Below, piece after piece: positions 6,492 through 30,807 of a DNA stretch of 32,000 bases. The notes below the pieces were generated by a model. It saw only the letters and a list, made by a program, of their open reading frames with translations, was not told the DNA's origin and made no database searches. The stretch's first letter is position 1; the number at the start of each line of letters is the position of its first letter. Origin of the DNA: Alkanindiges illinoisensis DSM 15370 (GTDB taxonomy: Bacteria; Pseudomonadota; Gammaproteobacteria; Pseudomonadales; Moraxellaceae). A program made the position numbers and the translations under genes. The DNA lies in contig NZ_JHUX01000004.1 of the NCBI RefSeq assembly GCF_000619845.1, forward strand, positions 325,190-357,189. Direction: 5' to 3'.

Positions 6492-6853
6492 CTAACAAAG
6501 TAACTTGAGAGAATCCAGATAATCAGCCCAAGCCTGCATCATTTCTCGGCGCTTCACTAAATGCTTAGTGCAGTTATAGACATGGCCATGCATGTCTCGG
6601 ACTTGATGGACTAATTGCTGCTCAATGATTTCTATTGGGTATTTTAATACTTCTTCTAGGATGGTTCGGGCTGCGGCGCGAAAGCCATGACCACACACCT
6701 GCTCTGAGCTATACAGTCTAATCGCCATGTCTTGTTGTCCTGTGGATCAACTGATAAATATAAGCCACAACCATCAAAAAGTTTGATCGTTTTATCAGTT
6801 GCTTTGATGGTTCTAAGACGCGTATCAGTACGCGAGACAACGACTTTAAGCAT
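6492..6853 (-). pseudogene. Tyrosine recombinase (P4-type integrase) remnant with a large internal deletion
   Basis: Two overlapping ORFs lie in different frames. One holds the N-terminal DUF4102-like arm-binding segment (MLKVVVSRTDTRLRTIKATDKTIKLFDGCGLYLSVDPQDNKTWRL). The other holds the C-terminal catalytic end (HGFRAAARTILEE...QQLVHQVRDMHGHVYNCTKHLVKRREMMQAWADYLD, with the HxxR box and catalytic Tyr). About 280 aa of core are missing. The remnant lies next to the 3' end of tRNA-Arg. Confidence 0.8.
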
Positions 6854-7003
6854 TTTTACGATAAAAGCCTCATACCGCATCATATACTGCAAAAGAAGTT
6901 AGCTTACATTGGATAAGTTAGGTCAATATTAGACAATAAAGTTAAAAATTATTATATTTTTCAACGACTTTACTACCATTTTAGACTACTTTAGAAAAGT
7001 AGA

Positions 7004-7080
7004 TGGCGCGCCCAGAGAGATTCGAACTCCCGACCCCCAAGTTCGTAGCCTGGTGCTCTATCCAGCTGAGCTATGGGCGC
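7004..7080 (-). tRNA. tRNA-Arg (anticodon ACG)
   Basis: The reverse complement is GCGCCCATAGCTCAGCTGGATAGAGCACCAGGCTACGAACTTGGGGGTCGGGAGTTCGAATCTCTCTGGGCGCGCCA. It folds by eye into a full cloverleaf with loop CTACGAA and an encoded CCA. Confidence 0.9.
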
Positions 7081-7196: not shown

Positions 7197-7287
7197 TGGC
7201 GGTGAGAGAGGGATTCGAACCCTCGATACCCATAACAGGTATGCGTCCTTAGCAGGGACGTGGTTTCAGCCACTCACCCATCTCACC
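7197..7287 (-). tRNA. tRNA-Ser (anticodon GCT), class II with a long variable arm
   Basis: The reverse complement is GGTGAGATGGGTGAGTGGCTGAAACCACGTCCCTGCTAAGGACGCATACCTGTTATGGGTATCGAGGGTTCGAATCCCTCTCTCACCGCCA. The anticodon loop is CTGCTAA. Confidence 0.9.
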
Positions 7288-8161: not shown

Positions 8162-8246
8162 TGGTGCGGATGAGAGGACTTGAACCTCCACGTCTTGCGA
8201 CACTAATACCTGAAACTAGCGCGTCTACCAATTCCGCCACATCCGC
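8162..8246 (-). tRNA. tRNA-Leu (anticodon CAG)
   Basis: The reverse complement is GCGGATGTGGCGGAATTGGTAGACGCGCTAGTTTCAGGTATTAGTGTCGCAAGACGTGGAGGTTCAAGTCCTCTCATCCGCACCA. It is very close to the canonical gammaproteobacterial Leu-CAG. Confidence 0.9.
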
Positions 8247-16335: not shown

Positions 16336-17345
16336 TAGGTGTTTAGTCCCACACTTTGATGGTGCAAAATTCTCACATGAATGGAAGGAGGCACTATGGG
16401 ACAAGTTTTACACGGCAGCGCCACAACGACACAGGCAATACGTCGAGCAATACAAAATAGTCAAGAAAGCTTAAGAGTCTTGGCCAAGCATTACAGCATC
16501 AATCAAAAAACAGTTGCAAAGTGGAAGAAGCGCACATCAGTCGTTGATAGAGCAACAGGGCCGAAGAATCCTCGCTCAAGTGTGTTATCGCCTGAAGATG
16601 AGGCAGCAATCGTTGCTTTTCGAAAACATACTTTGCTGCTGCTGAACGATTGCCTTTATGCGCTACAGCCGAGTATTCCTCATCTACCCGTTCCTCGCTA
16701 CACCGCTGCTTGCAACGGCATGACATCTCACAGTTGCCTGACGTCCATGGCGATCTTCCTGTCAAGAAGCGTTTCAAGAGCTACCCCATCGGCTACTTTC
16801 ATATCGACATCGCAGAGGTACAAACAGCACAGGGCAAGCTTTATCTCTTCGTCGCCATTGATCGCACGTCGAAGTTCGCATTCACCGAACTGCATGGCAA
16901 GGCTGGCAAGATGGCAGCCGCGCAGTTCCTGCGCAATCTGGTTGAGGCTGTACCCTACAGCATTCATACAGTACTGACGGATAACGGTATCCAGTTCACG
17001 AACCGCACCTGTGACCGCTATGCCTTTGAACACATATTTGACCGGGTTTGTGCTGAATATGGCATTAAACATCGGCTCACCAGGGTTAAGTATCCATGGA
17101 CCAACGGACAGGTTGAGCGCATGAACCGAACAATTAAGGAAGCCACCCTCAAACGGTACCATTACGATGACCACACTCAGCTACGCACTCACCTGACTGA
17201 ATTTATTAGCGCATACAACTTTGGCCGCAGGCTCAAAACACTAAAAGGGCTGACACCTTATGAATTCATCTGCAAACAGTGGACAGATGAACCTGAACGC
17301 TTCAAGATTGATCCGATCCATCAAATGCCGGGACTAAACACCTAG
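16336..17345 (+). mobile_element. IS481-family insertion sequence (about 1.0 kb) with a frameshifted transposase
   Basis: The terminal inverted repeats are TAGGTGTTTAGTCCC (16336-16350) and GGGACTAAACACCTA (17330-17344). They extend imperfectly to about 27 bp (..TTTGATGG shared). The interior encodes an IS481-type DDE transposase. Confidence 0.8.
16396..17345 (+). pseudogene. IS481-family DDE transposase split over two frames (-1 shift near 16684-16688)
   Basis: Frame A reads MGQVLHGSATTTQAIRRAIQNSQESLRVLAKHYSINQKTVAKWKKR...CLYALQPSIPHL. Frame B continues (T)RSSLHRCLQRHDISQLP...YPIGYFHIDIAEV...VLTDNGIQF...WTNGQVERMNRTIK (D, D, E). The junction is cat-cta-ccc-gtt. An AGGAGG RBS lies at 16386-16391. 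Confidence 0.8.
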
Positions 17346-17684
17346 ATATATTCTATGCTATTGAAATATATTTTATTTTAATAAGGTTTTACAATTACTC
17401 TTTTCCATCTTTAATATATTGCGAATAGTGAATCTTGGGATCATATCTAAGCCATGAAAAATATTAGTTTATTTTCAAAGTAATTCGTATACTTAATTTT
17501 TCTATAATCTTTTAATCTAGAACTAGTAATTTTAAATATATTTTTCTATAGTAAAATAAATATAACACCTCATCTTACTATAAGATTTAAGGCATTATAA
17601 CGACTTGCTAATTTACAGTTTTTTTAGAAAAATATTGTTAAACTAAAAAGAATCAAAAGATTCCTGCTGAGCTAGTTATTTTAC

Positions 17685-18854
17685 ATGTTTAAAACAATGC
17701 AAAAAAATTCCGATCTTAAGAGAGTTTTGATCATAACACGTAACTTACCACCTCTTATAGGCGGGATGGAACGCCTCAATTGGCACATGGCAGATGAACT
17801 CTCCAAATATTACTGTGTTAAAGTAATTGCTCCTACAGGCTCGGCTAACCTAAAACCAAAGCACTTAGATATGATTGAAGTACCTTTAGTGCCATTATGG
17901 CTATTTCTTATTCTTTCGCTCTGGGAAGCCATCAAAATTACACTACAATGGAAACCCGATATCATTCTTGCGGGTAGCGGATTAACTGCCTTAGCAGCAA
18001 AATTAAGCAGTATATTCTATACAAAGAGTAAATCCGTTGCTTATTTACATGGACTTGACATTACAGCAGATCATAGATTATATCGGCTAATATGGCTTCC
18101 CATATTGAGACAACTTGATCATGTCATTACAAATAGCAGTCCAACTTCACAACTGGTAAGCAATTTAGGTATTCCAGACACCCGTGTTAGTATTATTTTT
18201 CCAGGCGTTAACTTACCAAGAACAATCCAAACGCAAGCTCAAATAGAACAATTTCTACATAAATATCAATTACAAAATAAGCATATACTATTATCCGTAG
18301 GTCGACTGACCACTCGGAAAGGTATTCATGAATTTATTCAGTATGCTTTGCCTGATATTGTCAAAGCAATGCCAAATATAGTTCTTGTTATTATTGGAGA
18401 ATCACCAAAAAATGCCCTATTGGCTGAAACCCAAAGTAAAGAAAGTATTGAAGCAACTGTTTCGCAATTAGGCCTTCAAGAACATGTTAAATTCTTGGGA
18501 AAAATTGACGATCAATCTCTCTCGTATGCATATGAAAGCAGTCATGTACATGTATTTCCTGTACGCCATATTCCCAATGATCCTGAAGGCTTTGGTATGG
18601 TAGCTATTGAGGCCGCTGCTCATGGTTTACCTACCGTTGCATTTGCAACAGGAGGCGTGGTAGACGCTATTTCTGATGGGAAATCAGGATATTTAGTTCG
18701 CTCTGAAGATTATTTATTATTAACTCAAGCTGTGATCAAGGCGCTTGCCTTGAATAATTTTTGGAAAAAGTCTTGCCAAACATTTGCAAAAAATTTTACA
18801 TGGGAAAATTTTGGAAATGATATTAAAACAAAGTTAAATAATATTTTAAATTAA
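17685..18854 (+). CDS. GT4-family (GT-B fold, Glycos_transf_1) glycosyltransferase
   Basis: 389 aa. The C-terminal half carries the retaining GT4 E-x7-E region (PNDPEGFGMVAIEAAAHGLPTVAFATGGVVDAISDGKSGYLV). Confidence 0.8.
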   Translation: MFKTMQKNSDLKRVLIITRNLPPLIGGMERLNWHMADELSKYYCVKVIAPTGSANLKPKHLDMIEVPLVPLWLFLILSLWEAIKITLQWKPDIILAGSGLTALAAKLSSIFYTKSKSVAYLHGLDITADHRLYRLIWLPILRQLDHVITNSSPTSQLVSNLGIPDTRVSIIFPGVNLPRTIQTQAQIEQFLHKYQLQNKHILLSVGRLTTRKGIHEFIQYALPDIVKAMPNIVLVIIGESPKNALLAETQSKESIEATVSQLGLQEHVKFLGKIDDQSLSYAYESSHVHVFPVRHIPNDPEGFGMVAIEAAAHGLPTVAFATGGVVDAISDGKSGYLVRSEDYLLLTQAVIKALALNNFWKKSCQTFAKNFTWENFGNDIKTKLNNILN

Positions 18855-18877
18855 ATTCAAGTAGTGGAGCTTACTTT

Positions 18878-19846
18878 ATGATTGAAGATGAAAAAATTGG
18901 GGTAGCAATTATAACTTATAATAGACCAGATGGCTTAGAAAAATTATTTAATTCTTTACCACATGAATTTATTGACTGCTTTATCATTATAAATGATGGA
19001 AAACCAATAGTTTCTGATATTATTCCAGCTCAATATATATCCAACAACATTCATAATTTAGGTGTTGGAAAATCAAAAAATAAAGCTCTAAAATACTTAA
19101 TGGATAATCAGATGGATCATTACTTCATTTTTGAAGATGATGTTCATATAATAAACCAAGAGATATTTCATGCTTATATTCAAGCAAGTAAAACAACAGG
19201 AATTCATCATTTTAACTCTGCTTTACACGTAGCTGAAAATAAGAAGAGCAATGGTCAACCAAATCCTCTTATAAAAATTATATACCCGAACGATGTCAAA
19301 ATTTCATTTTATTTTACTTGCTGTGGTGTATTTTCATATTATTCAAAAAAATGTCTTCTTACTGTTGGATTAATGGATGAACAGTTTTTTAATGCAGCTG
19401 AACACATAGATCATACTCTAAGATGCTCTCAAATGAATATGCATTCTGACTTTTGGTATTTTGCAGATATATCAGATTCTTATATATATTTGAAAGATAC
19501 ATATAATCAAGAAAACTATCAATCAGTAATATTAGTAAATAGTGACTCATGTCAAGTAATCAAAAATGCTAAAATACGTTTTAACTTAAAATATCAAATT
19601 AATTCTGTTAAAGAAATAGAAATAAATAGTCTCTTTAAATTTATAAATAATTTAAATACTCTTTATAACAAAGAGAGAAAACAGAACGAAGAATTCAACC
19701 TAATAAAAAAAAACCTGAAGGAATTAATTAGAAAATTTCCTATTATATTTGGTTTTAAACTAATTCATGACTTAAATAGAATAATAATAAAGTGCTTTCA
19801 TGGATTAAAAAAAACTCTATTAAATATTAAGAAAACTCCACCCTAA
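18878..19846 (+). CDS. GT-A fold (GT2-like) glycosyltransferase, very AT-rich
   Basis: The N-terminus IGVAIITYNRPDGLEKLFNSL and the acidic motif YFIFEDDVHI (DxD-like) resemble GT2. The K/N/I-rich C-terminal third has no recognisable similarity. Confidence 0.5.
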   Translation: MIEDEKIGVAIITYNRPDGLEKLFNSLPHEFIDCFIIINDGKPIVSDIIPAQYISNNIHNLGVGKSKNKALKYLMDNQMDHYFIFEDDVHIINQEIFHAYIQASKTTGIHHFNSALHVAENKKSNGQPNPLIKIIYPNDVKISFYFTCCGVFSYYSKKCLLTVGLMDEQFFNAAEHIDHTLRCSQMNMHSDFWYFADISDSYIYLKDTYNQENYQSVILVNSDSCQVIKNAKIRFNLKYQINSVKEIEINSLFKFINNLNTLYNKERKQNEEFNLIKKNLKELIRKFPIIFGFKLIHDLNRIIIKCFHGLKKTLLNIKKTPP

Positions 19847-20718
19847 ATACCATCTTTTATTCCCAAAACTAACGATTTGATTTGTCCTAATTTATCCTTT
19901 TTCACTAGACAGATGATTATAAATTGATAAATTAGACCTAAAAAAAACTCTTTTGCTGCAAATATTTTTGGCACATAAGGCTCTTTTAATAGATACAATG
20001 TATTTCTAATTCGAAAATATCTTCTGAAAGCGGAGTGTATTGTAATGCTTTTACCGAACACTTGAATATTATAATCACCTATTCTATGCTTCATTGTAGC
20101 TTTATTTGAAATATAGCAATGTAATCCCTTGGCTTTTGCTCTAAAACACCATTCGATATCTACATAATCAATAAAATAGTTTGCTTTCATAAAGCCGATA
20201 CGTCTTAATACATTAACTTCAACGTACATTCCAGATGAAATAATCAAGCTAGCTCTTCGCGGCTGTTTAATATTAGAAACGTCAATAGTCTTGCGAAAAC
20301 CATATTTGTTAACAGATGTTATCTTATAAAAAAAACTATATTCCTTATCAAACAACCTTGGGCCTATGGCAGCGATATTTGCATCAATATAATTTCTTAC
20401 ATAAGTATAATCGCTAGCAATAAAATTAATAAAATTACGACTAATCATGCTATCTTGATCAAAGAAAACAATGTAACGAGCTCCTGATTGAATCGCCCTT
20501 TTTATACCGACATTCTGAGCATAAGCAATTCCCTTATTACTTTCCAAGTAAATAGTTTCAGCTTTTTTTATGCTATCTAACATACAGGCATTTTTTGAAG
20601 CATTATCAACCAAAATTACCCTGACACTTTGCTCAGATAGCTGTGTAATTAATGTAGATAGATTCTCATGTTTTGGATTGAACGACACAATCACTGCAAA
20701 AATATTCATTTCAATCAT
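19843..20718 (-). CDS. GT2 glycosyltransferase (WbbL/rhamnosyltransferase-like subfamily)
   Basis: IFAVIVSFNPKHENL...VILVDNASKN...IVFFDQDS show the typical GT2 Rossmann start and DxD region. The start overlaps the upstream gene's stop by 4 bp. Confidence 0.75.
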   Translation of the reverse strand: MIEMNIFAVIVSFNPKHENLSTLITQLSEQSVRVILVDNASKNACMLDSIKKAETIYLESNKGIAYAQNVGIKRAIQSGARYIVFFDQDSMISRNFINFIASDYTYVRNYIDANIAAIGPRLFDKEYSFFYKITSVNKYGFRKTIDVSNIKQPRRASLIISSGMYVEVNVLRRIGFMKANYFIDYVDIEWCFRAKAKGLHCYISNKATMKHRIGDYNIQVFGKSITIHSAFRRYFRIRNTLYLLKEPYVPKIFAAKEFFLGLIYQFIIICLVKKDKLGQIKSLVLGIKDGI

Positions 20719-21617
20719 TTTGGATATTTAAAAGCTGCTCCAGCGCCCTTTAACATACTCCTAGCCTGTGTTTTTCTATCTATAGAAAAGATTAAATAAA
20801 CTATAAAAGTAAGTATCAACTTAATGATTGCCCAAAATTTCCATGTCAAAGGAACATATTTTCTAAAGAGCAAAAGAATAGTATTTCTAAATAAATAAAA
20901 ATGCCTAAATGCAGAACGTATGGGCCAAACTTTCCAACCAAATAGCCAGAATTTTAAACTGCTTTCACCCATTTGATGATAAAATACAGCGGTTGGAATC
21001 CCATATAAATGATAACCAGCATTTAGTACTCTAAAAGACCATTCTGTATCAATATGATCAATAAAAAAGTCCTGATCTAGCGCACCCAATTGTGTAAATA
21101 AATTAGCACGCATGAATGTCCCACTACCATTTATATTTGTACACTTAACTGGCTGTATTGAGCCAGATTCTGGATAAATTCTACTCCATAATCCATTACG
21201 CATTTGATGAAAGCCATGCTGCTTCTGAGTTTTAAAATCTATTAATTTTGGACCAACACAACCAACTTTACTACCATTCTCCTCCAATTGATTGAAGTAT
21301 TTATAAAGCTGATTGATTGCATCAGTTGCTGGCACGCTATCCTGATCCAATAAAAGAATAAACTCTAAAGTTTTGTGCATCTTTATTGCATGATTGACGC
21401 CAATATTTAAAGCCGTTGCTAATCCAAGATTCTCATTATTATTAACTAAATAAATATTATTTCTTTTTTGGCTAATTTTGCTCAAGCGCGTAATATCTTG
21501 AGCATTAGATCCATTATCTACAATAATCCAGATAATTTCTCCTAAACTATGCATTTGTTGAGTTAATAATTCAAATGATGGATTATAGGTTACTGTAATC
21601 GCAGCAATATTATTCAT
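20715..21617 (-). CDS. GT2 glycosyltransferase (WbbL/rhamnosyltransferase-like subfamily), paralogous in architecture to the next gene
   Basis: IAAITVTYNPSFELL...IVDNGSN...LLLDQDS...IDHIDTEWSFR. It has 4-bp overlaps with both neighbours. Confidence 0.75.
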   Translation of the reverse strand: MNNIAAITVTYNPSFELLTQQMHSLGEIIWIIVDNGSNAQDITRLSKISQKRNNIYLVNNNENLGLATALNIGVNHAIKMHKTLEFILLLDQDSVPATDAINQLYKYFNQLEENGSKVGCVGPKLIDFKTQKQHGFHQMRNGLWSRIYPESGSIQPVKCTNINGSGTFMRANLFTQLGALDQDFFIDHIDTEWSFRVLNAGYHLYGIPTAVFYHQMGESSLKFWLFGWKVWPIRSAFRHFYLFRNTILLLFRKYVPLTWKFWAIIKLILTFIVYLIFSIDRKTQARSMLKGAGAAFKYPK

Positions 21618-23056
21618 AATACACGCCCATAGTCATCTTTCAACCGAACAATATCATCCTCACCTAAATAAGCACCTGACTGAATTTCTATCAGCTCCAA
21701 AGGAATACTTCCCGGATTTTCTAGACTATGAATTGTACCAATTGGAATATAGGTTGACTCATTCTCAGAAATAAAGTATTTCTCATCTCCTCTAGTTACT
21801 TTAGCTGTACCCTTTACTACGATCCAATGCTCTGCGCGATGATGATGTAACTGCAAAGATAGTTTTGACTTTGGATTAACAGTAATTCGCTTCACTTGAT
21901 AACGTTCACCTACATCAATTGAGTCATATTTGCCCCAAGGCCTTATGACTTCTCGGTGGATAGATAGCTCTGTCCTTTGATATCGGGTTAAGTCTTCTAC
22001 AATCTTCTTCATTAATTGTGATTCTGTTTTATTTGCTACCAGAATAGCATCTTTGGTTTCAACAACAATCAAATCATCTACGCCAAGCACTGTAACTAAC
22101 CGACTTGAAGCATGCACATAGTTATTTTGACCTTGCTCTATTAATACATCACCAAAAACCACATTCTGTTGCTCATCTTTGATACTGGACTCCCATAATG
22201 ACTCCCAAGATCCAAGATCATTCCAACCGGCCTCTAGGCGAACTACGGCACCAATTGTCGTGTGCTCCATCACAGCATAATCAATTGAATCCTCTGGACA
22301 ATCTTTAAAGGCTTCAGGATTTATACGTATAAAATCTAAATCTGCTTGGCACTGCATAAATGATTGCTTGCAGCTTGCCAGAATTTCTGGTTGATATTTT
22401 TTCACCTCATTGAGAAAGCTATTTGCCCCAAATAGAAACATACCGCTGTTCCATAAATACGACTGGCTCTCCAGATAATCTTTTGACGTTGCTAAGTCTG
22501 GCTTTTCCACAAAATGGGCTAACTGATAAGCCTTTCTATCCTCTAACATCTGACCCAATTTAATATAGCCATAGCCTGTATGCGCGCAATATGGTGTTAC
22601 TCCAAACACAACAAGCATACCCTGCTGCACAACAGTCAATGCAGATAAAATACTGCGATGAAATTGAGGGATATCTACAATATGATGATCTGATGCCAAA
22701 ACTAATAAGGCAGGATTTTTCTCTAAATATAATGCTTGTGCCTGCAATGCCGCTAATGTAATGGCTGGTGCAGTATTTTTACCTACAGGCTCTAGCAGAA
22801 TAGAAGCTTTTTCTATACCAATCTGTCGCAATTGCTCTGCAACAATAAATCGATGCTCCTCATTACAAATTATAATGGGTGAAGTCATCGGAATGTCCAG
22901 ATTGTCTAACCGTTTTAATGTTAATTGTAACATGGACCATTCTGGATCAATTAGCCGTAGAAACTGTTTGGGGTAGGATTTTCTAGACAATGGCCATAAG
23001 CGTGTACCGGAACCACCGGCCAATATAACGGGTGTAAGTATCCCTTTTTCATCCAT
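21614..23056 (-). CDS. manC: Bifunctional mannose-1-phosphate guanylyltransferase / mannose-6-phosphate isomerase (type II PMI-GMP)
   Basis: 480 aa. It has the N-terminal nucleotidyltransferase motif (PVILAGGSGTRLWPLSR.SYPKQF) and a C-terminal cupin PMI domain (RPWGKYDSIDVGERYQVKRITVNPKSKLSLQLHHHRAEHWIVVKGTA). Confidence 0.9.
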   Translation of the reverse strand: MDEKGILTPVILAGGSGTRLWPLSRKSYPKQFLRLIDPEWSMLQLTLKRLDNLDIPMTSPIIICNEEHRFIVAEQLRQIGIEKASILLEPVGKNTAPAITLAALQAQALYLEKNPALLVLASDHHIVDIPQFHRSILSALTVVQQGMLVVFGVTPYCAHTGYGYIKLGQMLEDRKAYQLAHFVEKPDLATSKDYLESQSYLWNSGMFLFGANSFLNEVKKYQPEILASCKQSFMQCQADLDFIRINPEAFKDCPEDSIDYAVMEHTTIGAVVRLEAGWNDLGSWESLWESSIKDEQQNVVFGDVLIEQGQNNYVHASSRLVTVLGVDDLIVVETKDAILVANKTESQLMKKIVEDLTRYQRTELSIHREVIRPWGKYDSIDVGERYQVKRITVNPKSKLSLQLHHHRAEHWIVVKGTAKVTRGDEKYFISENESTYIPIGTIHSLENPGSIPLELIEIQSGAYLGEDDIVRLKDDYGRVL

Positions 23057-23062
23057 GAAAAA

Positions 23063-24769
23063 TTATCCTAATGACAATATTTTATTACACCCGGCCACAG
23101 CAGACTCTCTATGTGCAATAATAATTAATGTCTTTTTACCATTTAACTCATTAATAGCTGCATTTACTGCCGCTTCCGTTTCTGCATCTAGTGCGCTGGT
23201 GGCTTCATCCATAAGCAATACAGGGGGATCACGGTATAGTGCACGTGCTATGCCAATCCGCTGACGTTGTCCCCCAGAAAGTAATACACCTCGTTCACCA
23301 ACAGTGGTGTAATAACCCTGATGTAATTCACTAATTATAAAATCATGTATTTGTGCAGCTTTAGCCGTTCTTACTACGGCATCCATATCAATATTTTCTT
23401 GGGGCACCCCAAAAGCAATATTTGCTGCTACACTGGCATCTGCTAGATAAATATGTTGTGGCACATATCCAATAGATTGCTGCCAACCAGTAACATTATC
23501 AGCAGTGATTGGAACATCATCAATTAATAATTGTCCCAGTTGTGGTGTTAATAAACCTAACAGAATATCCATTAATGTGCTTTTGCCAGAACCGCTTTTA
23601 CCCACTATTCCTAAGCTGCTATTGACCGGAATAGTTAAATTAACATGTTGTAGTATCTCTTTATGTTGACTACCAGGATAAGCATAGCTTACATCCATTA
23701 ACTGAATATCACGCTGTGGGATTAACGGTGCCATCTGATTAATCTTAGCCAACAAGGGTAATGAAAGATCACGATGAATATTTTGCAGTGTTGCCCCTGC
23801 AAAACGCATTCGAGCAAAAGCACGATAAATAATTTGGGCAGCTGGTAATATGCGATATGCTGCAAATCCGTATAAACCTAATACTGGCAATATATGTGCA
23901 ATATCATTACTTTGATGAATTAAAAGAAGTGCCAGTAAAATTAACCCAGTATATCCTGTTGCTTCAACAAGAAATAAAGGCACTTGACTTAATGTCTCAT
24001 TAGCTGCTAAATGCCTTGCAAAAATTCGAGAAGAACGATTAAACCGCTCCATATAAGCTGAAGCAGAATGAGTAATTTTTACGTCTTTAATGCCGCTTAG
24101 TGCTTCTTGGCAAGCTATAAACCGCTCTTTATTCGCTGTATGTAATTCTAAACCAATTTTGGTTAAATGCTTTCTTACTAGCCAATAAATTAGACCATAC
24201 AAGGAACCCACTATAAGCATTAAACTAAATGCCATAACCGGATTATATATAAACAGAAGTGCAAGCATTGCCAGAACAATAAATCCTTGACTCAGCATTT
24301 GCAAAAGCGGCTGCAACACATTGCCAAGCAAGTGGTCTACTTCCGATAAAATATTTTGGTTTAATTCTGCACTATTTCTCTGCAAGAAAAAAATATATGG
24401 CTGCTGAAGGTATACAGACAGAAGACGAAAACTAAAATAATAACGTTGTAAATTGGCAAAACGATTTAAGGTATGGATCGTAATGGATTTAAAGAGCGAT
24501 GAAAAAAGTACTATAAAGATAGAAAATATACCCAAAACCAAGATAAAGCTTTGTTTATTATTGAAAGAAAAGAAATTATAAATATAAGCCAGTATGGCAT
24601 TATCATGAATAACATCTGGCCTAGCAAGCACTGCAAGAAATGGCATAATAGAAACAACGCCAGCTGTTTCCATACCTGCCATGACTAATACCAAGATAAA
24701 TACAAGCAGTGCTTTTCTTTTCTCCATTGGTGTGAGTATGTGCCATAACTTTTTAAGTGATTCAAGCAT
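23063..24769 (-). CDS. Fused TMD-NBD ABC exporter (MsbA/PglK-like half transporter)
   Basis: 568 aa. A six-TM type I exporter domain is followed by an NBD with Walker A (GKSGSGKST), signature (LSGGQRQR) and Walker B (VLLMDEATSALD). Confidence 0.85.
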   Translation of the reverse strand: MLESLKKLWHILTPMEKRKALLVFILVLVMAGMETAGVVSIMPFLAVLARPDVIHDNAILAYIYNFFSFNNKQSFILVLGIFSIFIVLFSSLFKSITIHTLNRFANLQRYYFSFRLLSVYLQQPYIFFLQRNSAELNQNILSEVDHLLGNVLQPLLQMLSQGFIVLAMLALLFIYNPVMAFSLMLIVGSLYGLIYWLVRKHLTKIGLELHTANKERFIACQEALSGIKDVKITHSASAYMERFNRSSRIFARHLAANETLSQVPLFLVEATGYTGLILLALLLIHQSNDIAHILPVLGLYGFAAYRILPAAQIIYRAFARMRFAGATLQNIHRDLSLPLLAKINQMAPLIPQRDIQLMDVSYAYPGSQHKEILQHVNLTIPVNSSLGIVGKSGSGKSTLMDILLGLLTPQLGQLLIDDVPITADNVTGWQQSIGYVPQHIYLADASVAANIAFGVPQENIDMDAVVRTAKAAQIHDFIISELHQGYYTTVGERGVLLSGGQRQRIGIARALYRDPPVLLMDEATSALDAETEAAVNAAINELNGKKTLIIIAHRESAVAGCNKILSLG

Positions 24770-24778
24770 TGCAGCCCC

Positions 24779-25627
24779 TTACTCACCCTTATACATTAGT
24801 GCAGTTACTTGCTCTGAAATCAGTCCCATTAGAAAAATCATTACACTTCCTGTATAAAGCAATGCACTCATATTGGTAAAACGGTTGAACTCATAAAGAG
24901 TATAACCATACCAACTAGATGCCATCAAAAACAATATAGTGGCAATTGGCAAGAACATTTTAAGTGGAGAAAATAATGTTGCAATTTTAAAAATAATAAG
25001 AAAAAAACGAATGCTATCTTTTACTGGATGGATATGGCTCTTACCAATGCGTTTAGCTGCATGAATCGGCACATAAGCAACCGAATAACCCGCTCTAAAA
25101 AATGCCATTGTACTTGTTGTAGGATAGGAAAAACCATTCGGCAGTAAATACAGAAACTCTCTAAATTTATTAGCATTTACTGCTCTGAAACCAGAAGTTA
25201 AATCCTCTATAGGATGCTCGGTCATATAGGTTGCAAGCCTATTATACAATTGATTGGCTATACTCCGACCTATACTGGCTTGTGAACCTCTTTGCCGCGC
25301 TCCAACTACAAGGTCATATCCTTGGTTCATTTTCTCTAGTAAAAGAACAATATCTGCTGGATCATGTTGTCCATCGGCGTCCATAAATATAATGACCTCA
25401 CCAGTAGCTACTCTTGCTCCTGTTTTAATTGCTGCGCCATTGCCCTTAGGATAAGGATGAGACACCACATGTGCACCCGCTTGCTCAGCAAGCTGTAAAG
25501 TTTGGTCTCTAGAACCATCATTAATTACAATTATTTCTGCATCTGCATATATTTTTTTAATTTGTCTCACAGTTTGGCCAATTGCACCAGCTTCATTTTT
25601 CGCAGGTAAAACTATACTTAACTTCAT
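24779..25627 (-). CDS. Membrane-anchored GT2 polyprenol-phosphate glycosyltransferase (DPM1/GtrB/ArnC-like)
   Basis: 282 aa. The catalytic domain reads MKLSIVLPAKNEAGAI...IIVINDGSRDQT...IIFMDADGQHDP. Two C-terminal TM helices follow (FFLIIFKIATLFSPLKMFLPIATILFLMA, LLYTGSVMIFLMGLISEQV). Confidence 0.8.
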   Translation of the reverse strand: MKLSIVLPAKNEAGAIGQTVRQIKKIYADAEIIVINDGSRDQTLQLAEQAGAHVVSHPYPKGNGAAIKTGARVATGEVIIFMDADGQHDPADIVLLLEKMNQGYDLVVGARQRGSQASIGRSIANQLYNRLATYMTEHPIEDLTSGFRAVNANKFREFLYLLPNGFSYPTTSTMAFFRAGYSVAYVPIHAAKRIGKSHIHPVKDSIRFFLIIFKIATLFSPLKMFLPIATILFLMASSWYGYTLYEFNRFTNMSALLYTGSVMIFLMGLISEQVTALMYKGE

Positions 25628-25633
25628 TATGCT

Positions 25634-27559
25634 TTACTTATCCTTATGGTAAACATGCATTTTATCAGCCTCCATATCTGCTTGTATATTCTTCCTTAAA
25701 TCCTCTGCAATACGCTTGTACATTACCTCATCCTTTAACTGCTTTTGATAAATAAGCTCAATTTTTGTTAAAAGCTGTAAAGCTAATTTATAATAACCTT
25801 TATTTCCTAGATCAGCGACCATAGCTAATGCAGCACTAACATCTCGATATTGAACGGCTGCTCGCAAATAATTCTGATATGCTTTGTGTGGTAGCTCTAA
25901 TGCAGCAAATAATTGTGCTTGCAGATAATTCGATAATGCATAAAAATTAGGGTAATCTCTGTAAGATTTATTATATTTTATAAGATTAGTGAGAAGCTCA
26001 GTCATTTCTTGAGCATATAATCTAGTAAGTTTTTGATCCTTAATGATTTTATCAACCAAGCCACGTAATCCCCAAATAGCCGCACCATCAGCATTTTGTT
26101 TTAATATCTGGTGTTGAAGCCTTAAAAAATCTTGTTTACTAACCTTTCCGATATCTATTTTTTGTTTTAACAGTTGAATAAGTAAACTTGAATCAGGATG
26201 GCAAGCTATTGCTTGCTCTAACACTTGATTAGCTTCTTGAGATCGACCATGTTGCATCAATATTTCGGCTAATTTACTCTGAGCACGTACTGACTCAGGA
26301 TTATTCTGTGCCCAATAAACCTGCAGTTTTGTTGTATCTGACCATAAAATCACACGTTGCCATGTCATCCATGCTAATATTATTAATATTAGACAACTAA
26401 TGAAAATAACAGAACTCGATTTAGTTCTTTCAGATAAATTGTATAAACCTGCAGCTATAGGTAAAAATAAAAATATTGCTGCTACATAATTTCGGTGCTC
26501 AAAATATAACTCTAAACCAATGACACTTGATTCAATTAAGTGGGCTGCAAAAAAGAATAAAATTGCTAAACAAATTAGTGGATATTTTTTTCTAATAGCA
26601 AATGCAAAACCTAATAAAAAAATTATAAAGATAATCGATATTAATGTAGTAACTGGGTTTAACCACCCCTTAGAAATATAGTAACCATCTTGAAATAAAC
26701 CATAACCTTCTATACGTGGAATGAATAGCTGATATAAATAACTACAAATGATTCTTGCTTCGCTCCATAAACGCTCAGCCTGATTAAATGAACGATATGG
26801 CCAAGGATTTTCTGAAAAATCAATATAATGAAATAATAATGCTGCGATTACCGTTGATGGCATCCACAAACATATTGCACGCCAATACCAAATAGGTTTA
26901 TTAACCTTAGTAGGATTACAGAATTCTATAATTAAAATTAAAAGTGGTAATAAAGCACCATTTTCCTTGCTATAAGTTGCTAATATACTACTAATACTGA
27001 TGGATAAAGTCATTATAATATAAGCATGTAAGGGTCGTCTAGTTAATAAAGCTCTTCCTCTTAAATATCCAATCATACCTAACAGGCTAAATAATAACGG
27101 TAACTGTGCCATCCGTTGTATAACATATAACGTTGTAGAAACAAAGAAAGGATGTAACAACCAAAAGCCACATGATAAAAGTGCAATCCATGTTGCCTTT
27201 TTTTCTATGTATCCATAACTTAATAAAATTAAACGTATTGTCCAGTAGATTAAAATGCCACATGATAAATGAATAGCTAAATTGACTAATTTAAAAGGAT
27301 AAGCGCTTATTGGCCATGAATAAGCCTGAGGAATAAATGTGGCTAACGCAATGGGACGTCCTGTAGGTCCAGCAAAACCACTAGTTATAAATTGTTGGAT
27401 ATCTTTCCATTGTCCAGAATCCCTATAGTGAGCTAGACCCGCGAGATTAGATTGATCATCAAATAAAAACCCACCTTGAAGGCCTGGCCAATAAACTAAT
27501 CCAGTAAGTAAAATTAATATAAATAAACCAGTTGTTGGAATAATGCGAGTCATCAACAT
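25634..27559 (-). CDS. GT-C fold polytopic membrane glycosyltransferase with a C-terminal TPR domain (TfpW / TMTC / DUF1736-like); candidate pilin glycosyltransferase
   Basis: 641 aa. About 11-13 hydrophobic segments span residues 1-400. An FLFDD motif (D34-D35, codons at 27455-27460) lies in the first predicted periplasmic loop. LELYFEHRNY is present near the last TM segments. Residues from about 410 to 630 are helical TPR-like repeats. It is the first gene downstream of pilA. Confidence 0.65.
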   Translation of the reverse strand: MLMTRIIPTTGLFILILLTGLVYWPGLQGGFLFDDQSNLAGLAHYRDSGQWKDIQQFITSGFAGPTGRPIALATFIPQAYSWPISAYPFKLVNLAIHLSCGILIYWTIRLILLSYGYIEKKATWIALLSCGFWLLHPFFVSTTLYVIQRMAQLPLLFSLLGMIGYLRGRALLTRRPLHAYIIMTLSISISSILATYSKENGALLPLLILIIEFCNPTKVNKPIWYWRAICLWMPSTVIAALLFHYIDFSENPWPYRSFNQAERLWSEARIICSYLYQLFIPRIEGYGLFQDGYYISKGWLNPVTTLISIIFIIFLLGFAFAIRKKYPLICLAILFFFAAHLIESSVIGLELYFEHRNYVAAIFLFLPIAAGLYNLSERTKSSSVIFISCLILIILAWMTWQRVILWSDTTKLQVYWAQNNPESVRAQSKLAEILMQHGRSQEANQVLEQAIACHPDSSLLIQLLKQKIDIGKVSKQDFLRLQHQILKQNADGAAIWGLRGLVDKIIKDQKLTRLYAQEMTELLTNLIKYNKSYRDYPNFYALSNYLQAQLFAALELPHKAYQNYLRAAVQYRDVSAALAMVADLGNKGYYKLALQLLTKIELIYQKQLKDEVMYKRIAEDLRKNIQADMEADKMHVYHKDK

Positions 27560-27628
27560 ATATTTATAATCTTAAAATTTATAGAACAATCACTTTAAGT
27601 ACATTTTTTTCTTAAGATGATCTTAAAT

Positions 27629-27657
27629 AAGAAGAGGCTCCTATAGAGCCTCTTCTT
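27629..27657 (-). terminator. Hairpin (probable partial terminator/attenuator) between pilA and the glycosylation operon
   Basis: AAGAAGAGGCTCctataGAGCCTCTTCTT is a 12-bp perfect stem. The trailing minus-strand sequence ATTTAAG is only weakly U-rich, so read-through is plausible. Confidence 0.55.
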
Positions 27658-27684
27658 ATTTTATAGGTCGTTAATACTGATTAA

Positions 27685-28092
27685 TTACAGTACGCCTTTA
27701 GGTAAATATTTAGCAATACCACCATTACTAGTAACTTTTATTGAACCATTTCTATCTGTCTTAGCAACTACTTGTTTACTTTCAATTTGTTTAGCAACTC
27801 CAGAAGATGCATAGGTAATAGTAACAGTACATTCACCTGTAGCACTTGGAGCACCAGCTGTTACTTTTACACTTGCAGCATATTTACCGTGTGCACTGCT
27901 ACTACCACAATCTCCAGTTTGCAAGCTGTCGCCGATATCAGCTTTTAGGCCATCAGCTAATGCAAAACCTTCAGCAGCTTGTGATCGTGCAATATAATCT
28001 TGGTAAGCAGGAATCGCAAAAGCAGCCAGAATACCAATGATCGCTACAACGATCATCAATTCAATTAACGTAAAACCCTTTTGTGCGTTCAT
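27685..28092 (-). CDS. pilA: Type IVa major pilin
   Basis: [38 protein letters not shown] has the class III signal peptide, the prepilin peptidase site and Glu5. The start was set at ATG 28090-28092, preceded by AGGAGA. The track ORF start at 28176 adds 28 spurious residues. 135 aa precursor. Confidence 0.9.
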
Positions 28093-28170
28093 ATAAATTC
28101 TCCTAGGAATACAAAAATAGTAGTGTTGGCTTGTTGTTTTGACCAACGCTCTAACACACACGCTGTTATA

Positions 28171-28187
28171 TTGCATTTGTCATGCCA
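28171..28187 (-). promoter_or_regulatory. Sigma-54 (-24/-12) promoter of pilA
   Basis: The minus strand reads TGGCATGACAAATGCAA, against the consensus TGGCACG-N4-TTGCW with correct GG/GC spacing. It lies about 80 nt upstream of the pilA ATG. Confidence 0.7.
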
Positions 28188-28361
28188 AATCAATATCTGT
28201 GAATTGATAACGCTGCAAAAACAGGCAAATAAAGCCATTTTGTTAGTTAGAGCACATTTATATTTATTATTAAAAAGCAATTTAAGGAAATATTTGACAT
28301 TTTTTGTCACTTAGCCATAGCATCTACAAAAATAGTCAGTTTAATCAATAGCCTTAAATTG

Positions 28362-28922
28362 CTATAAAAATATAGCCTGATTGCTTAATTCATTACCTAA
28401 GTCTTTTATTTTGTTAGCATAAAATTGGTTGAGCACTTCGCCAATTTGCTCAATACCGCTAATTACCCCGGCACAATACTGTTTTTGCTTGAGCTGCGCA
28501 GTAATATTACTGCAAATTGTGTCCCAATTCTCGCTTGTAACAAAATGATTTATGCCGCGATCAGCCACAATTTCAACTTTGCGTTCACATAAGTTGATGT
28601 ATAGCAGCACACCGCTGTTATAGGCAGTGTCCCATACCCCATATTCAGCAAACAGCTGTTTTGCACGGGTTCTGGTATTAGTGCGCAATGCCATATCCAG
28701 TGGCAGATGTCCTTCAATAATCACCTGGATCTCACCTGCATGATTTTGTTCAGCCTGCGCGACGGCATTGCTAATCTGCTTTTGTACATCCGCATTAAAG
28801 CATCGACGCGTCTGCCACGGTAGATAAATAAAATTTCTAAACCAGCGGGGAAAATCCAGTTGTTTACAATCATCTGTTAGTTTTTGATGACTACTTATCA
28901 GGTCAGTATCATTATTTACCAT
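28362..28922 (-). CDS. TPM-domain (TLP18.3/Psb32/MOLO-1, DUF477) protein
   Basis: 186 aa, third gene of the lemA operon. The motif AGEIQVIIEGHLP...NSGVLLYINLCERKVEIVADRGI resembles the TPM phosphatase-like fold. The start overlaps the upstream stop. Confidence 0.6.
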   Translation of the reverse strand: MVNNDTDLISSHQKLTDDCKQLDFPRWFRNFIYLPWQTRRCFNADVQKQISNAVAQAEQNHAGEIQVIIEGHLPLDMALRTNTRTRAKQLFAEYGVWDTAYNSGVLLYINLCERKVEIVADRGINHFVTSENWDTICSNITAQLKQKQYCAGVISGIEQIGEVLNQFYANKIKDLGNELSNQAIFL

Positions 28923-30010
28923 GATCCAGAAGCTCCGCCGCCGCCAAATGAGCCACCGCCACCGCGATAGCCTCCGCCACCAAAACCGCCACCACCGCGT
29001 CCTCCACCAAACCCACCACCGTTTAGTACACCGGATAGAAGTAGCTGTGCAATTGAACTAATTAATAAAAAGAATACACCCCCACCTAGCATCAAACTGC
29101 TAATGAGACCAAGTCCACTGCTTAAGCCCCAGCCGATTCCTACTGCACCGGCAATACTGGCGCTTAGGGATTTTCCTATAAACAGTGCCGCAAACATACC
29201 GCCCAAGCAAAGAATGATCAGCATGGTCAAACTGCTTTGGGTACGGGCCTGTTGCTGGGCCTGAGCCGCCTGCTGTTGTTTGAGCTGATCCGCACTGTTT
29301 TTAGCAATTTCTGGATCAAGTTTTAAGATTTGGGCAATCTGGTTTAAGCCAGCAGTCAATCCAGCCGCATAATTGCCTTGTTTAAACTGGGGGGTAATTT
29401 GCTCTTCAATAATGCGCTTAAGTACAACATCGGGTAATACGCCTTCTAGTCCATAACCCGTTAAAATCTGGATACGGTGATCATTGACTGCAACCATGAT
29501 GAGCAAGCCATTATCTGTTTTTTCGTTACCCAGTTTCCATTGTTCAAAAGCACGGTTAGCGTAATCAAAAATGGCTTCCTGCCCGGTACTGGGCAAGATA
29601 ATAAGTCCGGTTTGTGCGCGTCCTGTCTGATAAATTTCTAGAATTTTTTGGCTAAGTTGCTGCTGTTGCTCACTGGTTAATAAGTTGGCCTGATCAATCA
29701 CCGGGCTGTTTAAATCTGGCAATGTGGCTTGAATGAGGTTGGGGTCAGCCTGTGCAGGTCTCTCTGCCGACGTTGAGGCGTCTATAGTGCTTTGATTATT
29801 GATGGGCGCACTGATGGGCGGAATAGCACTGTTCAGTACTGGCCCACCCGCCTGCTTGGCCTGATTTAGAACGATTGCCGCTTCTGCCACCTGGTCTGCT
29901 TGCGTCGCTGATTCTGCATGGGTTTGGACAGCAGTTAACAGCAATACCATCATTATAAAAATGATTAAATATTGATGGCATTTTTCCTGTAAAACTGCAA
30001 GTAGCGGCAT
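28916..30010 (-). CDS. YgcG-like TPM-domain membrane protein with a glycine-rich C-terminal tail
   Basis: It has a signal/anchor, a TPM domain (VIDQANLLTSEQQQQLSQKILEIYQTGRAQTGLIILPS...DNGLLIMVAVNDHRIQILTGYGLEG), TM segments, and a GGGFGGGRGGGGFGGGGYRGGGGSFGGGGASGSW tail. The exact start is uncertain (30010 or an internal Met). Confidence 0.65.
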   Translation of the reverse strand: MPLLAVLQEKCHQYLIIFIMMVLLLTAVQTHAESATQADQVAEAAIVLNQAKQAGGPVLNSAIPPISAPINNQSTIDASTSAERPAQADPNLIQATLPDLNSPVIDQANLLTSEQQQQLSQKILEIYQTGRAQTGLIILPSTGQEAIFDYANRAFEQWKLGNEKTDNGLLIMVAVNDHRIQILTGYGLEGVLPDVVLKRIIEEQITPQFKQGNYAAGLTAGLNQIAQILKLDPEIAKNSADQLKQQQAAQAQQQARTQSSLTMLIILCLGGMFAALFIGKSLSASIAGAVGIGWGLSSGLGLISSLMLGGGVFFLLISSIAQLLLSGVLNGGGFGGGRGGGGFGGGGYRGGGGSFGGGGASGSW

Positions 30011-30165
30011 GGCATTGTCTTCTGCTTTGGCCTTTTAACTGCGGATAATTTTTAGTTATCCAGCGTTACGGCATTAAAATCAGGTTTCTCACAAGCAAGT
30101 TATTTTCACAATATGGTTTTAAAAACATGATCCTAAGAACCTAATTTTACAACCATGAGCATTAA

Positions 30166-30807
30166 TCAGGGCTGTGCCACTGGTGGTGCTGATTGACCAG
30201 CGGGTGTTGCTGTATCAAAACTAACTGTCGGTGCGGTGGCAATGGCAGCTTCATTATTCACTGAAAAATTGGGGCGTGGCTGCATGCCAATCACTTTGGC
30301 TGTTAGCGACTGTGGCAACTGGCGTACATAGGTGTTGTAGTCCTGCACCGTCGTGATATAACGATTGCGTGCCACGGTAATGCGGTTTTCAGTGCCCTCC
30401 AGTTGTGCACTTAAATCACGGAATGAGGCATCTGCTTTAAGGTTTGGATAGTTCTCAGACACCACCAGCAAACGTGACAAAGCCCCGGTTAACTGGCTTT
30501 GGGCTTGCTGAAATTTCTGGAATGCAACCGGATCATTTACTAATTCAGGGGTGGCCTGAATCCCAGCCACCGATGCACGGGCACGGGTAACTTCGGTCAA
30601 TACCTGCTGTTCGTGGCTGGCATAGCCTTTGACGACATTGACCAGATTGGGTACCAAGTCGGCGCGACGCTGATACTGATTCAAAACTTCAGACCAACTG
30701 GCGTTTACCGCTTCATCTTTGGCCTGCAAGTTATTGTAGCCACAACCTGGCAAGCTGCTGGCCAGTACGCTTATTAGCAGTAATGCTGGTAATACCCGAC
30801 GTGTCAT
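30166..30807 (-). CDS. lemA: LemA-family lipoprotein
   Basis: The lipobox is LASSLPG-C. The LemA body reads YNNLQAKDEAVNASWSEVLNQYQRRADLVPNLVNVVKGYASHEQ...ENYPNLKA...LEGTENRITVARNRY. Confidence 0.85.
   Translation of the reverse strand: MTRRVLPALLLISVLASSLPGCGYNNLQAKDEAVNASWSEVLNQYQRRADLVPNLVNVVKGYASHEQQVLTEVTRARASVAGIQATPELVNDPVAFQKFQQAQSQLTGALSRLLVVSENYPNLKADASFRDLSAQLEGTENRITVARNRYITTVQDYNTYVRQLPQSLTAKVIGMQPRPNFSVNNEAAIATAPTVSFDTATPAGQSAPPVAQP

Follow-up and report, generated by a model that had tools for sequence, protein, structure and literature searches.

TfpW is the closest described counterpart of the protein considered here. It occurs in Pseudomonas aeruginosa/paraeruginosa strains belonging to group IV (Pa5196, PA7), is about 646 aa long, and exhibits 11 transmembrane (TM) helices between a cytoplasmic N-terminus and a C-terminal periplasmic domain of tetratricopeptide repeats (TPR). 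Its gene is located immediately downstream of pilA. A DDX motif in periplasmic loop 1 is essential, and loop 4 carries the motif YX6PFX7P. Modelling of TfpW matched its membrane part to ArnT and its C-terminus to the TPR domain of OGT. The donor is D-arabinofuranose (D-Araf), supplied through DprE1, DprE2 and a phosphoribosyltransferase (PRTase) whose genes lie elsewhere, together with a GtrA-like helper and frequently also TfpX. A 2020 preprint reports pilA-linked putative homologues in several genera including Acinetobacter venetianus (29.9-47.1% identity), and mentions neither a family 2 glycosyltransferase (GT2) partner nor an alternative donor. Here we analyse a 32,000-nt stretch of Alkanindiges illinoisensis DSM 15370 (contig NZ_JHUX01000004.1, positions 325,190 to 357,189 of the forward strand), called the window below. 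The gene directly downstream of pilA encodes a 641-aa membrane protein with the TfpW layout, and the next gene a GT2. We consider it likely that the 641-aa protein is a pilin glycosyltransferase of the glycosyltransferase-C (GT-C) type, fed by a lipid-linked donor that the GT2 makes. This reading draws directly on fold, topology, motif conservation, gene order and its conservation, the classes of the partner enzymes and the covariation of the TPR domain with the pilin.

Three other groups of enzymes are relevant for comparison. The eukaryotic protein O-mannosyltransferases TMTC1-4 combine 11 TM helices with a C-terminal TPR domain and hold their catalytic loops on the non-cytoplasmic side. In streptococcal GtrB/PgtC2 and PgfS/PgfM1, a GT2 lipid-sugar synthase partners a GT-C enzyme by which exported proteins are O-glycosylated at Ser/Thr. 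Actinobacterial Ppm1/Pmt likewise join a GT2 lipid-sugar synthase to GT-C protein O-glycosylation. In contrast to the protein of the window, the streptococcal and actinobacterial GT-C enzymes are of YfhO or PMT type, lack TPRs, and act on Ser/Thr-rich disordered regions of many proteins instead of a single pilin encoded next door. The characterised pilin glycosylation enzymes of Moraxellaceae (TfpO, TfpM, PglS, PglL) are all of the Wzy_C type. They share with the window the niche downstream of the pilin gene and the outcome, glycosylated pilin, but form an unrelated class that transfers undecaprenyl-diphosphate-linked O-antigen or capsule units, often to a C-terminal Ser.

The protein and its two domains are as follows.

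25634..27559, minus strand: candidate pilin O-glycosyltransferase, a TfpW-like GT-C plus TPR membrane enzyme of 641 aa (from homology, model, fold search, topology and gene order).
26342..27559, minus strand: N-terminal GT-C domain, predicted to be catalytic, residues 1-406 with 11 TM helices (from Foldseek on the domain alone and topology).
25637..26335, minus strand: periplasmic TPR domain, residues 409-641, proposed pilin-recognition module (from Pfam, PDB profile, Foldseek and TPR-pilin covariation).

The sequence is 100% identical to an Alkanindiges illinoisensis NCBI entry titled just "tetratricopeptide repeat protein". An AlphaFold2 model of the whole protein, based on an alignment of 34 homologues (mean predicted local distance difference test, pLDDT, 83.9; predicted template modelling score, pTM, 0.76), exhibits 11 hydrophobic helices (residues 2-406) and then a repeat domain made up entirely of helices (409-640). 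The short loops predicted to be cytoplasmic contain 8 K/R and no D/E among their 27 residues, against 11 K/R and 13 D/E among the 157 residues of the remaining short loops. By the positive-inside rule this charge skew supports an N-in orientation, with loop 1 (bearing D34-D35) and the C-terminal TPR domain in the periplasm. The TPR assignment is obtained from sequence (a Pfam TPR_14 match and a PDB profile match to the TPR protein PA4667) as well as from fold (Foldseek matches to TPR proteins including the OGT TPR domain, probability 1.0). Sequence and profile searches of the PDB returned TPR proteins only.

Because TPR proteins swamped the full-length Foldseek list, residues 1-412 were modelled separately (mean pLDDT 70, pTM 0.76). 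The top 14 Foldseek matches of this N-terminal model are all GT-C enzymes of class A, namely PglB, yeast and human STT3, AglB, ArnT and Pmt4, with probabilities of 0.98-1.0 and query TM-scores (TMq) from 0.36 (ArnT) to 0.54 (Pmt4). Beneath them the list falls abruptly to major facilitator superfamily transporters and similar folds (probability <=0.21, TMq <0.2), and its top 50 contain no WaaL/Wzy-type fold. A GT-C class A fold of the membrane domain is thus supported by the model, because the hits are exclusively GT-C and because the geometry of the motifs described below agrees with it. The ArnT and OGT TPR matches published for TfpW recur among these Foldseek hits. The membrane domain has its nearest structural neighbours in STT3, PglB and AglB (GT66). 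These enzymes carry a WWDYG motif and a mixed alpha/beta periplasmic domain at the C-terminus, whereas the C-terminal domain here is an all-helical TPR; the STT3 Pfam domain gave no match, and the WWD motif is absent. Pfam domains PMT, PMT_2 and MIR were not matched either, Pmt4 being merely a structural neighbour. Judged by defining domains, the protein falls outside the TMTC/DUF1736, PMT, STT3 and Wzy_C families.

Conserved residues cluster in four periplasmic loops.

27455..27460, minus strand: codons of D34-D35, an invariant acidic pair in loop 1 and putative catalytic/metal site, counterpart of TfpW DDX and TMTC M1.
26960..26968, minus strand: K198-E199-N200 in the short loop 3, within an invariant SKENGALLPL, putative counterpart of TMTC M4 KE(T/Q).
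26717..26740, minus strand: Y274-x6-P281 in loop 4 (TM7-TM8), invariant, in the same loop as TfpW YX6PFX7P.
26486..26512, minus strand: E350-L-Y-F-E354-H-R356-N-Y358 in loop 5 (TM9-TM10), invariant, putative counterpart of TMTC M7 ERxxY.

The segment FLFDD lies directly after TM1, and its F33, D34 and D35 are invariant in the 34 homologues; the DDX form reads D34-D35-Q36. FxxDD is present in nearly all full-length relatives from 80 related loci described below. Loop 1 also contains an invariant G67-R68-P69. LELYFEHRNY corresponds to residues 349-358 and is invariant among homologues. The invariant set comprises D34, D35, K198, E199, Y274, P281, E350, E354, H355, R356 and Y358. In loop 4, E284, G287 and Q290-D291-G292 are invariant after P281; the family consensus is P-[RQK]-[IV]-E-G-x-G-L-x-Q-D-G, and the query shows P281 followed by R-I-E-G-x-G-L-F-Q-D-G. 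These residues sit in the loops where TfpW and TMTC hold their functional motifs. The first-pass annotation of the window, made from the letters and their open reading frames, had anticipated much of this: a 641-aa product encoded directly after pilA, a polytopic N-terminus of some 400 aa, FLFDD in the first extracytoplasmic loop, LELYFEHRNY near the last TM helices, a TPR-like C-terminus facing the periplasm and a GT-C fold. Sequence, model, charge count and the fold check that it named agree with each of these, and the DD motif, whose placement in the cytoplasm it would have taken as counter-evidence, falls in the periplasm.

The same annotation called the protein TMTC- and TfpW-like. This stands for the layout, 11 TM helices plus TPR as published for both. 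The published TMTC motifs, with the number of their loop, are DD and SHKSYRP (1), RxD (2), KE(T/Q)xxT (3), DW (4) and ERxxY (5); KE(T/Q) of M4 binds the donor phosphate and the metal, and the Arg of M7 ERxxY binds the donor phosphate. By this description D34-D35, R68-P69, K198-E199-N200 and E354-H-R-N-Y358 appear in the matching loops, the equivalence of K198-E199-N200 with M4 being one of position and loop, not of structural superposition. In contrast, M3 RxD (loop 2) and M5 DW (loop 4) are not evident in the window protein, and the acceptors of TMTC are cadherins as opposed to the pilin proposed here; donor lipid and sugar may differ as well. With a limit of E <= 10, none of the 16 family members searched matched Pfam DUF1736, which covers the TM7-TM8 loop. 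Since neither DUF1736 nor the PMT models match, the comparison with TMTC is one of architecture and motifs, and does not extend to family membership. The likeness to TfpW includes the pilA-adjacent position, the length (641 vs 646 aa), 11 TM helices, N-in topology, DDX in loop 1 and the periplasmic TPR domain.

The upstream gene and the intervening element are as follows.

27685..28092, minus strand: pilA, type IVa major pilin, a 135-aa prepilin (Pfam Pilin and N_methyl; ribosome-binding site and ATG from sequence).
27625..27661, minus strand: hairpin, perfect over 17 bp, in the gap from the pilA stop to the start of the GT-C gene (from RNA folding).

The true start of pilA is the ATG at 28092, preceded by AGGAG, and not the start of the 163-aa open reading frame (ORF) that contains it. 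PilA has two Cys, and Ser/Thr-rich segments GSSSAHG, APSATG and YASSG. Its C-terminus reads ...KGVL and lacks a C-terminal Ser; unlike in the Wzy_C-type systems, no Wzy_C domain is present here. The GT-C gene follows after a gap of 125 nt, within which the hairpin folds at -26.5 kcal/mol (z = -5.5; 0/200 shuffles fold as well). A simple terminator scan missed this hairpin because it lacks a clean T-run. Comparable elements have been reported to tune the expression of the accessory gene in other pilA-accessory gene pairs. By analogy, the hairpin is probably a pilA terminator or attenuator that reduces downstream expression.

The association with pilins is not restricted to this genome. A scan of one genome per species returned at least 571 genomes with a relative, and the best 80 loci, P. 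paraeruginosa not being among them, were analysed with pilin genes detected by their class III signal motif. In 48/72 evaluable loci a same-strand pilin gene is located no more than 1.2 kb upstream, the lineages with this linkage being Moraxellaceae, Pseudomonadaceae, Comamonadaceae, Rhodocyclales, Cellvibrionales and Methylococcales; the pilin link suggested by the first-pass annotation is strong across lineages. A GT2 gene lies directly downstream of the GT-C gene in 43/74 loci, and the full triad of pilin, GT-C and GT2 is found in 36/67. Across loci the GT2 is more conserved (54-81% identity) than the GT-C enzyme (33-64%). In two GC-rich gammaproteobacterial loci (L032, L036), pilA and pilBCD flank the GT-C gene, and the neighbourhood is free of further glycan genes. 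A profile of the catalytic domain, searched exhaustively, retrieved 5,393 clusters (50% identity) at E <= 1e-30, and no homologue was found in plasmid and phage collections. The three-gene module of pilin, GT-C and putative donor-making GT2 is widespread across many Proteobacteria. A literature search for the pilA-GT-C-GT2 arrangement surfaced only the 2020 TfpW preprint and no account of the module.

The TPR domain and the pilin appear to vary together. In 47 loci, the similarity of the pilin globular domain follows that of the TPR domain with the catalytic domain controlled for (partial r = 0.33, Mantel p ~5e-4), the control for shared ancestry being linear only, and the converse comparison gives r = -0.11 (p = 0.94). 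Because of the linear control we grade this covariation as suggestive; it would fit recognition of the acceptor by the TPR domain. Nine loci (L004, L037, L039, L051, L057, L064, L069, L070, L077) carry a second, divergent GT-C plus TPR paralogue in tandem, sometimes beside two or three pilin genes; the paralogues are 27-33% identical in most loci and 53% in L004. The paralogue of L057 (29% identical) has a proline-rich loop 4, YLRLALLPRPIAFSPF, as opposed to the P-x-I-E-G-x-G-L-x-Q-D-G of the main family, which suggests that loop 4 is a site where subfamilies diverge.

Gene arrangement differs in one further group of loci. Eleven of them, mostly from Woeseiaceae (L042, L046, L049, L050, L052, L056, L058, L059, L061, L068, L072), have no adjacent pilin or GT2 gene. 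Two pilin genes are found on their opposite strand instead, downstream by a near-constant distance of about 5 kb, which constitutes a distinct conserved arrangement.

In the window, the operon continues from the GT-C gene to GT2c, and two genes on the opposite strand converge on it.

24779..25627, minus strand: GT2 of 282 aa with two C-terminal TM helices, polyprenyl-phosphate sugar synthase class (Pfam Glycos_transf_2, NCBIfam and PDB matches).
23063..24769, minus strand: ATP-binding cassette (ABC) exporter with fused transmembrane and nucleotide-binding domains, PglK-like, proposed flippase of the lipid-linked glycan (NCBIfam and PDB matches).
21614..23056, minus strand: ManC (GDP-mannose pyrophosphorylase/phosphomannose isomerase), predicted to supply GDP-mannose (TIGR01479, 701 bits, above cutoff).
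20715..21617, minus strand: GT2b, rhamnosyltransferase subfamily, 4-nt overlap with manC (TIGR01556, 214 bits vs cutoff 200.55).
19843..20718, minus strand: GT2c, rhamnosyltransferase subfamily, 4-nt overlap with GT2b, last gene of the minus-strand operon (TIGR01556, 246 bits).
18878..19846, plus strand: ORF322, 322 aa, with a GT-A-like N-terminus (VAIITYNRP; sequence reading only).
17685..18854, plus strand: family 4 glycosyltransferase (GT4) at the far end of the island (Pfam Glycos_transf_1 and Glyco_transf_4).

The genes from GT-C through GT2c are separated by gaps of 6, 9 and 6 nt, followed by the two 4-nt overlaps. The ORF at 24779-25627, which the first-pass annotation had pointed to as a neighbour, can now be given an identity. 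Its best NCBIfam matches are AglJ, PpgS, Dol-P-hexose transferase, PgfS and ArnC; in the PDB, ArnC, GtrB (matched over the full length) and DPMS score best. The characterised proteins nearest to it are all polyprenyl-phosphate glycosyltransferases, and we propose it as the maker of the lipid-linked donor; PgfS among the matches also links it to the streptococcal systems. AglJ primes a dolichol-phosphate-linked oligosaccharide. For the ABC exporter, PglK is the best NCBIfam model, yet below cutoff (352 bits vs 1000), and the end-to-end PDB match is better to PglK (275 bits) than to MsbA (173 bits). The flippase slot is filled by a PglK-like ABC exporter in Moraxellaceae and by a Wzx/MOP protein after the GT2 in Pseudomonas-type loci. 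The position of the GT4 is kept in Acinetobacter and Pseudomonas-type loci (45-56% identity). ORF322 is matched by neither Pfam nor NCBIfam; its N-terminus, KIGVAIITYNRPDGLEKL, looks like that of a GT-A glycosyltransferase, and it may represent an unmodelled glycosyltransferase family. The scanned ORFs of the window include no initiating phosphoglycosyltransferase, no Wzy_C enzyme and no D-Araf genes (DprE1, DprE2, UbiA-type), and those scanned against Pfam include no PRTase of the D-Araf pathway.

A three-component logic of polyprenyl-phosphate sugar synthase, flippase and periplasmic GT-C transferase is established in GtrA/B/C, ArnC/ArnEF/ArnT and the PPPRS/MATE/GT-C pentofuranose systems (Kelly et al. 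2024). The window shares this composition and differs from it in three respects: the proposed acceptor is a protein (pilin), where those systems modify O-antigen or lipid A; an ABC exporter or Wzx, not GtrA, SMR or MATE, is the proposed flippase; and the operon contains extra cytoplasmic glycosyltransferases. Other accessory genes of the related loci depend on lineage (GT4s, GT2s, a methyltransferase, a UDP-galactopyranose mutase). The mutase (Glf) is found in Delftia acidovorans (L021, 15149-16261, minus strand), and the methyltransferase, dependent on S-adenosylmethionine, in Phytopseudomonas argentinensis (L019, 15176-16540, minus strand). These two hint at galactofuranose-containing and methylated pilin glycans.

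The acceptor, the identity of the donor and all catalytic steps are inferred, and we propose the following scheme. The adjacent GT2 would transfer a sugar from a nucleotide sugar to undecaprenyl phosphate (Und-P) at the cytoplasmic face of the membrane. The PglK-like ABC exporter (a Wzx flippase in other lineages) would move the lipid-linked glycan to the periplasmic face. There, an active site formed by the periplasmic loops, with D34-D35 (loop 1), K198-E199 (loop 3), Y274...QDG (loop 4) and E354/R356/Y358 (loop 5), would transfer the glycan to Ser/Thr of PilA ahead of pilus assembly, while the periplasmic TPR domain recognises or holds the pilin. GT2b and GT2c, and probably GT4 and ORF322, may extend the Und-P-sugar, with GDP-mannose from ManC among the donors. 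The first sugar more likely comes from a housekeeping UDP-sugar than from GDP-mannose, because ManC is present in few related loci (just 3 of ~17 from Moraxellaceae, plus this window) whereas the GT2 is constant. For the same reason a mannose-specific donor of PMT/TMTC type was not adopted, and O-mannosylation, implied by the comparison with TMTC in the first-pass annotation, is not specifically indicated.

As to what is transferred, we lean slightly towards a short oligosaccharide, moved en bloc, over a single sugar. Four considerations give rise to this lean: translational coupling ties ManC and the cytoplasmic glycosyltransferases to the core genes; enzymes of this kind are found with the core in unrelated lineages; the flippase classes are known for flipping oligosaccharide-lipids; and the scanned genes include no separate enzyme for initiation or ligation. 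On the other hand, wherever a GT2 synthase paired with a GT-C enzyme has been characterised in bacteria, the pair moves single sugars. Taken further, the pilA islands may represent a new class of bacterial O-oligosaccharyltransferase system, in which the AglJ/GtrB-like GT2 starts the glycan on Und-P without a phosphoglycosyltransferase, lineage-specific cytoplasmic glycosyltransferases extend it, a PglK-like ABC exporter or a Wzx protein flips it, and the GT-C/TPR enzyme transfers it en bloc to pilin Ser/Thr. We put this forward tentatively, at somewhat less than an even chance.

The strongest competitor is a Gtr-like, single-sugar variant of our own reading. The GT2 would then make an Und-P-monosaccharide and the GT-C enzyme would add single sugars to pilin Ser/Thr, possibly repeatedly as in TfpW, which is thought to build oligomers in the periplasm; ManC and the other glycosyltransferases would belong to the pathway of a different glycan and be merely co-located. 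Gtr, ArnC/ArnT, GtrB/PgtC2 and PgfS/PgfM1 all transfer a monosaccharide from an Und-P-sugar, Und-P-monosaccharides are within reach of MOP-family flippases, and three loci (L022, L023, L028) show little besides pilA, GT-C and GT2, several of these contigs being short. Against this variant stand the translational coupling of the extra glycosyltransferases and ManC to the GT-C, GT2 and ABC genes, as well as the cytoplasmic glycosyltransferases that accompany the triad in unrelated lineages with differing enzyme sets. Nor do the islands contain an initiating phosphoglycosyltransferase, a Wzy_C ligase or an oligosaccharyltransferase for a separate pathway, and the best NCBIfam match of the GT2 is AglJ. 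We regard the single-sugar variant as less likely than not.

It is improbable that the enzyme modifies something other than pilin, such as lipooligosaccharide, capsule or other periplasmic proteins, with the pilA site acting as a hotspot for horizontally acquired glycan genes. Such a hotspot would suit the low-GC island that ends at an insertion sequence (IS) fragment of the IS481 family, described below; most GT-C enzymes with GT2 partners do target glycans or lipid A, and roughly one in three related loci has no pilin directly beside it. However, same-strand pilin adjacency spans several orders and includes loci without other glycan genes, TPR divergence tracks pilin divergence, and TfpW, the sole characterised enzyme of this architecture and position, glycosylates pilin.

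A functional orthologue of TfpW, adding D-Araf from polyprenyl-phosphate-arabinose made elsewhere in the genome, is very unlikely. Position, size, topology, DDX motif and TPR domain are as in TfpW, and the D-Araf genes of P. aeruginosa are themselves unlinked to pilA. Unlike TfpW, however, the window operon contains a dedicated GT2 donor synthase, conserved family-wide, together with a PglK-like ABC exporter, ManC and further glycosyltransferases, and no tfpX; no DprE1, DprE2 or UbiA-type gene is present among the scanned ORFs of the window, and loop 4 departs from TfpW exactly at PFX7P. With a GT2 synthase and a flippase in place of D-Araf genes, the locus is therefore not a functional copy of TfpW, and the D-Araf chemistry that the first-pass annotation implied finds no counterpart here. 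That annotation had also taken the DNA for Acinetobacter and knew of no pilin system of this type there. The organism is Alkanindiges illinoisensis of the Moraxellaceae, and the second statement was too strong, as the 2020 preprint lists the pilA-linked A. venetianus homologue, uncharacterised as it is.

Equally remote is the idea that the protein has no catalytic role and is an accessory or assembly factor of the pilin, or that it is a polymerase or ligase of Wzy/WaaL type, or a transporter: pilA-adjacent accessories such as TfpX, TfpY and TfpZ are non-enzymatic and the N-terminal domain has no curated family match, but the loops carry invariant acidic and basic residues of the sort typically found in GT-C active sites, and the Wzy/WaaL-type and transporter candidates are ruled out by a fold search that returns GT-C only (transporters at probability <=0.21) and by the missing Wzy_C domain, which all known Moraxellaceae O-oligosaccharyltransferases possess.

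Several points weigh against our proposal of a GT2-fed pilin glycosyltransferase. The N-terminal domain has no Pfam or NCBIfam match except a weak DUF6056 in 5/16 family members. The Foldseek E-values of the N-terminal model are modest (2e-3 to 5e-2), and loops 1, 4 and 5 of this model are of low confidence, a low pLDDT being expected for loop 5 because it is a mobile loop. In its literal form, the YX6PFX7P motif of TfpW occurs neither in the query nor in 93 locus proteins nor in the top 150 cluster representatives; just the YX6P half is kept and the F-x7-P half is missing. The protein and TfpW (AAM52060.1) are very probably related, a kinship drawn from published features and not from alignment; strict membership of the TfpW family is unproven because of the half-kept loop-4 motif and because the comparison follows a published description. 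A directly upstream pilin is missing from 24/72 evaluable loci, 12 of which have one within 8 kb, and the pilins of Woeseiaceae loci are some 5 kb off on the other strand. The linear ancestry control of the covariation test belongs here too. Finally, we know of no bacterium in which undecaprenyl-monophosphate-linked oligosaccharides have been established.

The pilA-to-GT4 island (17500-28500) has a GC content of 0.26-0.39 vs about 0.46 in the flanks. Its genes vary among Acinetobacter species while the flanking genes are fixed; in Moraxellaceae the flanks are LemA-TPM-TPM on one side and bfr-ridA-spoT on the other. In the window, LemA and two TPM-domain proteins, one of which has a long Gly-rich C-terminal tail, are encoded directly upstream of pilA (28362-30807, minus strand). 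This trio adjoins pilA in many Acinetobacter loci, and is also near a pilin gene in Tibeticola (L034). Exactly at the low-GC edge beside GT4 lies an IS481-family transposase (16381-17345, plus strand) in two overlapping ORFs, a helix-turn-helix part (16381-16977) and a DDE part (16650-17345; 218.9 bits vs cutoff 224). The split is either a frameshifted remnant or programmed frameshifting. A second low-GC stretch (4.5-8.5 kb) contains three tRNA genes on the minus strand (Arg-ACG 7004-7080, Ser-GCT 7197-7287, Leu-CAG 8162-8246) and, beside them, two short overlapping ORFs (6492-6892) resembling N-terminal fragments of a P4-type integrase; this region may be a decayed integration site. Elsewhere in the window, the genes of a LysR-type regulator (1818-2699, minus strand) and of a small protein carrying two BTP/chlorhexidine-efflux domains (2794-3243, plus strand) are divergently oriented, which we take to be an AceR/AceI-type arrangement, known from Acinetobacter.

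Pilin glycosylation affects phage susceptibility, immune recognition and pilus function. The GT-C family described here is very large, yet its catalytic domain has no Pfam or NCBIfam model and its members are annotated just as "TPR repeat protein". The conserved pilA-GT-C-GT2 core, with interchangeable flippases and variable glycosyltransferases, constitutes a concrete testable pathway, and is a likely explanation of pilin glycan diversity in environmental and clinical Acinetobacter and relatives of Pseudomonas. It possibly offers a new enzyme class for glycoengineering. If the module reading holds, TfpW would be one specialised branch of a much broader system. If, in addition, the islands do encode a new class of O-oligosaccharyltransferase system, it would be the O-linking counterpart of PglB and AglB, whose membrane domains are the closest structural neighbours, and would stand apart from every known O-oligosaccharyltransferase of Wzy_C type; through the variable gene content, the pilin glycan would then become a hypervariable surface trait, serving for instance in phage evasion.

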